Part shown: piece by piece, positions 1,005-1,095 of the stretch | Position numbering within the stretch: position 1 is the first letter of the stretch | How the letters are laid out: each line of letters opens with the position of its first letter | The notes under the pieces: model-generated | Seen by the model: the letters and a program-made list of their open reading frames with translations, nothing else | Told to the model about the DNA's origin: nothing | The model's database searches: none | IMG/VR virus record: IMGVR_UViG_2778261036_000014 | Source: a virus | Taxonomy: Duplodnaviria; Heunggongvirae; Uroviricota; Caudoviricetes | Reading direction: 5' to 3' (one strand) | Length of the DNA stretch: 22,388 nt | Program-made: the position numbers and the translations under genes

Positions 1005-1095
1005 GCGATTTTTTTGATACCGATTTGCATTTCATTTGATACCGCTGAAAAACGCCGATACGCAACTTATTTGATACTAAATCGGCGCTTTTCTT
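1005..1095. repeat. Three direct repeats containing TTTGATAC just outside mom; candidate transposase-binding sites of the prophage right end
   Basis: TTTGATACCGATTTGC (~1012), TTTGATACCGCTGAAAAACGCC (~1043) and TTTGATACTAAATCGGCGC (~1070) lie between the J break and the mom stop. Spacing of roughly 27-31 bp resembles the multiple transposase sites at Mu ends; a GAAAAACGC stretch resembles the Mu right end as I recall it. Confidence 0.45.

Follow-up and report, generated by a model that had tools for sequence, protein, structure and literature searches.

Three direct repeats at the right end of an Sp18-type Mu-like prophage are probable docking sites for a MuA-family transposase

In the current study, we analyzed a stretch of viral DNA of 22,388 nucleotides (IMG/VR virus record IMGVR_UViG_2778261036_000014, Caudoviricetes; here called the window) in which the word TTTGATAC is repeated three times close to the end of a Mu-like prophage. 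These three repeats are almost certainly the right-end transposase docking sites of a prophage of the Sp18 type. More specifically, we consider it very likely that positions 996 to 1078 are the right attachment end (attR) of this transposable prophage, and that each of the three TTTGATAC(C/T) units forms the conserved inner half of a site of about 22 bp (R1 to R3) which is bound by the MuA-family DDE transposase of the phage. The position, copy number, orientation, spacing and conservation of the repeats were read directly, as were their co-variation with one segment of the transposase, the TA terminus and the 4-bp target duplication. End sites as such are expected in phages of this kind; what is specific to the lineage is the recognition motif, the TA terminus and the length of the duplication.

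The boundary of the element is sharply defined. Over positions 1 to 995 (plus strand) the window is 100% identical to the host-specificity gene J of VT1-Sakai; it is in the J gene of a VT1-Sakai-like Stx1 prophage that the Mu-like prophage is inserted. In VT1-Sakai the uninterrupted gene carries on as ...gtggag|gctgtcgg; at the same point the window has ...gtggag|TATAGCGCGG, with TATAGCG following position 995 (the junction in the window is ...ttcgtggag|TATAGCGCGGCGATTTTTTTGATACCGATTTGCATTTCATTTGATACCGCTGAAAAACGCCGATACGCAACTTATTTGATACTAAATCGGCGC...). The first 405 nt of the element were found in 232 of 5426 complete E. coli genomes, where the matches always begin at the base equivalent to 996 and adjoin many different host genes; base 996 is therefore the terminus of the prophage. 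In IMG/VR the same right end was found next to 15 distinct flanks, which differ at every insertion. From 996 onward, the window carries a Mu-like prophage with mom, com and then the tail, baseplate and head genes, all on the minus strand. Because mom is the last gene, this end corresponds to the right end of Mu. An earlier note on this DNA had described three direct repeats at a prophage terminus, at the place where Mu carries its right-end sites, and both statements proved correct: the repeats start at 1013, 1035 and 1070 on the plus strand, the terminus lies at 996, and the two outer cores end at element nt 26 and 48, just as they do in Mu, with mom as the last gene.

The left end and the transposase gene lie outside the window, and they were read in two near-identical prophages, L003 (strain SRCC 1675) and Sakai Sp18. 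The window is identical to L003, an element of 39,286 bp, over 17.9 kb; Sp18 is identical over the 110 nt of the right end and has 11 mismatches in the first 5 kb. The exact junction of J with the prophage was sought in the complete RefSeq E. coli genomes of our collection and was found in none of them. Sp18 has been reported to be intact and packaged, and this type of prophage has been called capable of transposition (PMC2669165, PMC7430833). The arrangement in the window is that of a prophage within a prophage, in which the Mu-like element splits the J tail-fibre gene of the Stx1 phage; the J gene of VT1-Sakai is itself already annotated as truncated by mutation.

The TTTGATAC repeats occupy positions 1013 to 1020, 1035 to 1042 and 1070 to 1077 on the plus strand, with start-to-start distances of 22 and 35 nt. 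In the whole window, counting both strands, there are four copies of the word against 0.48 +/- 0.72 expected, a count reached in 0 of 100 dinucleotide-preserving shuffles; the repeats are therefore real rather than a product of chance. The sole further copy in the window is on the minus strand, at 19751 to 19758 in the major head gene. Across the complete 39,286-bp element, six of the eight copies lie within 175 bp of a terminus. Apart from the head-gene copy, the only internal one is in the A-B intergenic region (L003:36166, element nt 35866), and both are probably fortuitous.

Inverted copies at the left end had been proposed as a check on these repeats, and they are indeed present. The left end begins TGTAACCAGGTGAATCATTTGATACC in both L003 and Sp18, and counted from this terminus it has three inverted copies of TTTGATAC, at nt 18, 113 and 165; those of the right end are at nt 18, 40 and 75. 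The terminal core thus spans nt 18 to 26 at both ends of the element. That the outermost copy lies at nt 18 from each terminus is what would be expected if one protein sets the same active site at each end.

Taken from the terminus inward, the right end begins with 5'-TATAGCGCGGCGA at 996 to 1008 (plus strand), the terminus itself plus the outer half of R1; the transferred strand ends ...CTATA-3' at 996, the position at which matches elsewhere begin. All three proposed sites are on the plus strand. Site R1 extends from 1000 to 1021 (about 22 bp), with its core TTTGATACC at 1013 to 1021 (element nt 18 to 26), the same distance from the terminus as at the left end of Sp18 and L003. Site R2, at 1022 to 1043, lies 22 bp from R1 and has an outer half ATTTGCA (1023 to 1029) and the core TTTGATACC (1035 to 1043, element nt 40 to 48). 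Site R3, the third direct copy, spans 1057 to 1078, with an outer half ATACGCA (1058 to 1064) and the core TTTGATACT (1070 to 1078, element nt 75 to 83). A weaker conserved block thus precedes several of the cores, namely, A-T-N-N-G-C-A in R2, R3 and L3, with ATATGGAA as its counterpart in R2 and R3 of the VL40-type E. coli prophage. The pairing of this upstream block with the core suggests a bipartite site of about 22 bp, as in Mu.

Conservation at the left end singles out the cores. When 12 distinct variants of the left end, all of the TTTGATAC group and taken from IMG/VR and genomes, were compared, only 1 of 16 core columns was found to vary, against 64 of 96 neighboring columns (nt 89 to 200; Fisher p = 5e-6). 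The L1-L2 spacer (left-end nt 27 to 88; L003:39499-39560) is also nearly invariant among these otherwise diverged variants. It contains AGGTGA(A)ATCA-like words at nt 8, 47 and 83 and a degenerate AAGATAC at about nt 64, and it may serve as a pac site, bind a host factor or provide a weak fourth site.

The transposase of L003 is a protein of 696 amino acids with the Pfam domains Mu-transpos_C and HTH_Tnp_Mu_1, and its gene is followed by one for a MuB-like ATPase (Phage-MuB_C). A single-sequence phmmer search of the Protein Data Bank (PDB) with this protein returned retroviral integrase cores only and no MuA. A profile built from five sequences (the L003 transposase and four relatives) matched MuA (4FCY, E = 3e-12; the I-alpha subdomain, 1TNS, E = 5e-12) and TnsB (E = 2e-10), and it also matched the Mu repressor structure 1G4D. 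By hhalign, the transposase is homologous to MuA over its full length (probability 99.5%, 24% identity). Closer relatives of the Sp18-type transposase are those of VL40 (76% identity), Pseudomonas phage VW-6B (48%), Klebsiella phage Kp4852-3 (41%) and the D3112 group (about 30% to D3112 A).

Comparison within this family reveals which part of the protein changes along with the motif. A scan of genome contigs with the transposase gave two loci, and the VL40-type prophage was then located by BLAST. The Sp18-type and VL40-type transposases are 93 to 100% identical at residues 271 to 420 (the catalytic core) and only 33 to 43% identical at residues 121 to 180, and their end motifs differ. Conversely, the Sp18-type and M18-type transposases are 100% identical at residues 121 to 240 and share the same motif, although residues 1 to 60 are only 53% identical and the repressors 43%. 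The hhalign alignment places residues 121 to 210 on the I-beta subdomain of MuA and residues 1 to 60 on I-alpha. Taken together, the pattern of identity and this placement indicate that the motif follows the I-beta-like end-binding segment and not the immunity module. The earlier note had suspected a transposase of different binding specificity, and this is borne out by the 24% identity to MuA, by the absence of CGAAA and by the I-beta-like segment that changes with the motif. The transposase genes themselves (L003:36222-38312, L011:1360-3456 and L007:35626-37713) are mosaic: residues 1 to 60 vary with the repressor/immunity region and residues 121 to 210 with the end motif, while the catalytic core is nearly identical. 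This mosaicism suggests modular exchange by recombination.

The terminal nucleotides of the element are unusual in themselves. The right terminus is 5'-TATAG in all 22 copies inspected (the window, L003, L007, L008, LC727895, Sp18 and 16 of 16 IMG/VR contigs), while the left terminus is polymorphic: of the 16 IMG/VR contigs (L028-L043), 10 have TGTAACC and 6 have TATAACC. The transferred strand therefore ends in pyrimidine-A and not strictly in CA. In nine of nine independent insertions the target duplication is 4 bp (ATCG, CTCT, GGTA, TGCG, TTCA, TTCT, TGTT, GACT and TAAA), and when the empty agaF site was rebuilt with a single ATCG, it matched uninterrupted genomes at 240 of 240 bases. Consistent with this, the depositors of LC727895 annotate a 4-bp repeat, and the Sakai annotation of Sp18 exceeds the element by 4 bp. 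Duplications of 5 or 6 bp and termini shifted by 1 or 2 nt were considered and rejected; no other partition yields a direct repeat in any of the nine insertions, and the rebuilt empty site is exact. By the rule taken from these nine other insertions, GGAG (992 to 995) is predicted to be the copy of the duplication in the window. To gauge the duplication length in TG-ended relatives, we searched IMG/VR with the exact Kp4852-3 right-end pattern, which had no match; looser patterns returned both kinds of end, never from one genome.

As noted above, the architecture of these ends is that of Mu. In Mu, too, each end has three sites of about 22 bp, the two ends are inverted with respect to each other, R2 follows R1 directly, 22 bp further in, and L1 lies at the terminus, separated by a long spacer from L2 and L3 about 100 to 170 bp inside. 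The mom and com genes are likewise the last genes, and a MuA homologue is accompanied by a MuB-like ATPase. The CGAAA cores of Mu begin at right-end nt 22 and 44 (with an extra copy at nt 13 within R1 and an inverted one at nt 57) and at left-end nt 22, 127 and 167, such that those of R1 and R2 end at nt 26 and 48 and that of L1 at nt 26; the TTTGATACC cores here also end at nt 26 and 48. Even the 13 nt at the right end of Mu, TGAAGCGGCGCA, are recognizably related to TATAGCGCGGCGA. However, the core word is CGAAA in Mu and TTTGATAC here, where a CGAAA core is absent. The third right-end copy is inverted in Mu and direct (R3) here, and Mu has a TG terminus and a 5-bp duplication instead of a TA right terminus and 4 bp. 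Relative to Mu, the genome is strongly mosaic: Mom has 182 of 229 aligned residues identical to Mu Mom (79%), in contrast to the transposase, at 24% to MuA. In mom, com and the tail genes the phage resembles Mu; its transposase, terminal dinucleotide and duplication length are not Mu-like.

This combination also places the element. It has the attachment ends of the Mu type (a position at the extreme end, about three inverted sites per end, a fixed terminal distance, and a MuA-family transposase with a MuB-type ATPase), but it lacks the CGAAA core, the TG...CA termini and the 5-bp duplication which mark Mu and D108 in the strict sense (Muvirus ends). By near-identity over the end and the late genes, it belongs with the Sp18-type prophages of enterohaemorrhagic E. 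coli.

Alignment with the ends of other Mu-like phages, also put forward earlier as a check, showed a shared geometry with a different core word in each of Mu, VL40, VW-6B and Kp4852-3. The VL40-type prophage has its own core, TTCAAGATA, at right-end nt 18, 40 and 75 and left-end nt 18, 89 and 141; VW-6B has TTYTGGAC at right-end nt 18, 40 and 73; and Kp4852-3 has TTTGCAY at right-end nt 19 and 41, with a third, inverted copy at nt 71. The right-terminal 13-mer of the window is conserved in VW-6B and in IMG/VR contigs (TGTAGCGCGGCGA) and in Kp4852-3 (TGTAGAGCGGCGA), while that of VL40 (TAAAGCGCGCAAA) is more diverged. The right ends of VW-6B and Kp4852-3 begin with TGTAG(C/A)GCGGCGA and then have their own word at nearly the same positions, a pattern shared by many IMG/VR contigs; TG termini are found in Kp4852-3, in VW-6B and in many IMG/VR relatives, and the third right-end site is palindromic in several. 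The AGGTGA block of the left terminus is found again in Kp4852-3, and VL40 has it as AGGTAA; for VW-6B no left terminus was identified. Such a change of word within a constant geometry is characteristic of a protein and the DNA that it recognizes.

More distant systems offer precedents for the departures from Mu. The transposable prophages of Leptospira have TA-TA termini and 6-bp duplications, and phage B3 duplicates 6 bp (PMC8705779). MuA-family systems with TA termini or with a duplication other than 5 bp are therefore not without parallel. The Leptospira prophages, though, are unrelated in sequence and host, and they duplicate 6 bp instead of 4; here, moreover, the right end invariably has TA, and the left end has either TG or TA. 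The next-best structural relative of the transposase is TnsB of the Tn7 family. TnsB recognizes several repeats of about 22 bp, which are arranged asymmetrically between the two ends of the transposon. The element described here differs from a Tn7-like transposon in that it is a phage, has no TnsA-, TnsC- or TnsD-like genes and encodes a MuB-type ATPase instead.

On this basis, a plausible sequence of events can be proposed. R1 to R3 would be bound by the MuA-family DDE transposase of the phage and, together with the three inverted sites of the left end, would be assembled into a synaptic complex of transposase subunits. After nicking the element behind its terminal A (the complement of base 996 of the window), this complex would attach the 3' ends to the target at positions staggered by 4 nt. 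If the protein works as MuA does, its I-beta-like subdomain (about residues 121 to 210) would recognize the TTTGATAC core, and the half nearer the terminus would fall to the I-gamma-like and catalytic parts, which are more conserved. Physical binding is proposed on indirect grounds, namely, the phylogenetic footprint and the co-variation with the I-beta-like segment; the matching of half-sites with subdomains and the sequence of assembly steps are likewise proposals. A wider possibility, to which we give an even chance, is that the Sp18 lineage represents a natural MuA-family system with a 4-nt stagger and a ...TA-3' transferred end (fixed at the right, optional at the left), in which specificity was changed by swapping only the I-beta-like subdomain and the 8- to 9-bp core.

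Could these repeats have another function? The one with most to recommend it is that they are bound by a different end-acting protein, such as the repressor, Ner, a pac factor or a host bending protein. The I-alpha subdomain of MuA and the Mu repressor have a DNA-binding fold in common, and the repressor structure is, as mentioned, also matched by the profile of the transposase. Furthermore, Mu has its pac site near the left end, and the left-end spacer (nt 27 to 88) is strongly conserved. However, the Sp18-type and M18-type prophages have identical end motifs despite repressors that are only 43% identical and I-alpha-like segments that differ. A pac site would occupy one end only, and sites for host factors would not switch between TTTGATAC and TTCAAGATA in phages of one species, E. 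coli. We grant this explanation only a very small likelihood. That an AT-rich 8-mer should have clustered by chance in an intergenic tail itself rich in AT, where short words do recur more often, is scarcely credible: none of the 100 shuffles reached the observed count, and the word stands three times, inverted, at the other end and is invariant across diverged variants. The comparison with the left end therefore refutes it.

A third explanation, with a slightly smaller likelihood than binding by another protein, is that the region is mainly a transcription signal, an intrinsic (perhaps bidirectional) mom terminator with AT-rich flanks, of which the TTTGATAC words are a by-product. There is in fact a hairpin here. 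An inverted repeat with 13-nt arms at 1047 to 1059 and 1081 to 1093 (minus strand; 92% complementary), flanked by A and T runs, holds the R3 core in its loop and folds well on the mom strand; as minus-strand RNA, the segment from 1030 to 1130 has a folding energy of -28.4 kcal/mol (z = -4.4), with this hairpin and a second one at 1106 to 1129. A simple terminator scan missed the hairpin because its loop is longer than 8 nt. The VL40 right end also has a terminator, a canonical one lying just inside its R3. The hairpin is probably the intrinsic terminator of mom, and it is possibly bidirectional. Nevertheless, it covers R3 only and leaves R1 and R2 outside, the same motif is found at the left end, where no gene ends, and neither the equal nt-18 offset nor the co-variation with the transposase would be explained by a terminator. 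Most likely, the terminator coexists with R3, but it cannot take the place of transposase sites.

Several points nonetheless weigh against our assignment of R1 to R3 as transposase sites. The binding of these sequences by the transposase is deduced from comparison of sequences, and their role in transposition is thus putative. The pairing of half-sites with subdomains leans on an alignment to MuA at 24% identity and should be read as provisional, and the left end and transposase gene are linked to the copy in the window by way of near-identical prophages, so that this link, too, is a presumptive one. The core of R3 lies within the probable mom terminator hairpin, and part of its conservation could serve transcription. 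There are also natural variants with an altered core (R2 is TTTGATTC in L025, and L2 is TTTGATAT in L028 and L036), from which it follows that not every site is strictly required. Finally, in the incomplete library that we searched, no description of the end sites, TA terminus or 4-bp duplication of Sp18 was found; the ends of this prophage are undescribed there, and we claim no priority.

Just inside the terminator lies mom, the DNA modification gene and the last gene before the right end (1124 to 1861, minus strand), an open reading frame (ORF) annotated as Mom in related genomes. It is preceded by com, the translational activator of mom (1815 to 2015, minus strand), identified by the Com-family annotation at the equivalent position in L003. 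The mom control region (2060 to 2125) is conserved in diverged variants and contains a GATC cluster (CAATCGATCGACAAAAACGATCGATTCGAT, 2060 to 2089) reminiscent of the Dam/OxyR-controlled mom promoter of Mu. It also contains a perfect 7-bp dyad, ATTTGTT-N10-AACAAAT (2087 to 2110), as a candidate activator site. A TTGATAC in this region, noted previously at about 2094 and thought to be related to the repeats, is present at 2096 to 2102, but no link to the end sites could be shown. Only the 7-mer is there (ATTGATAC), and five copies outside the end, against about two expected, is not a significant excess. As a fourth transposase site it was accordingly rejected: it lacks the first T and an outer half-site, it sits in the spacer of the dyad beside the GATC cluster, and its count is compatible with chance.

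Further into the element, a Gin-like DNA invertase gene stands beside oppositely oriented tail-fibre and tail-fibre-assembly genes (5382 to 5942 and 5950 to 7000), an arrangement that probably marks an invertible host-range segment. Such a segment has been noted for Sp18 (PMC2669165). RefSeq annotates a "tRNA-OTHER" between head-morphogenesis genes of the M1 and M18 variants (L007:20764-20843 and L008:20946-21025); in the whole window, ARAGORN found no tRNA, and an Rfam scan returned nothing.

The feature described here is of a known kind, set apart by a motif that is specific to the lineage, and it is not a new kind of system. Its TA terminus, 4-bp stagger and modular exchange of I-beta segment and core might be of interest to specialists. 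It does fix the boundary and the end anatomy of a prophage family carried by about 4% of complete E. coli genomes, with many Shiga toxin producers among them, and this should aid the annotation of insertions. In nature there are also pairs of transposases that are closely related yet differ in end motif; together with a non-CA terminus and a 4-bp stagger, they provide handles on how MuA-type proteins read their ends and space their targets. If specificity in this lineage was indeed changed by swapping the I-beta-like subdomain and the core, then Mu-like prophages residing together in E. coli, one with ends of the TTTGATAC type and the other with ends of the TTCAAGATA type, would be mutually orthogonal.
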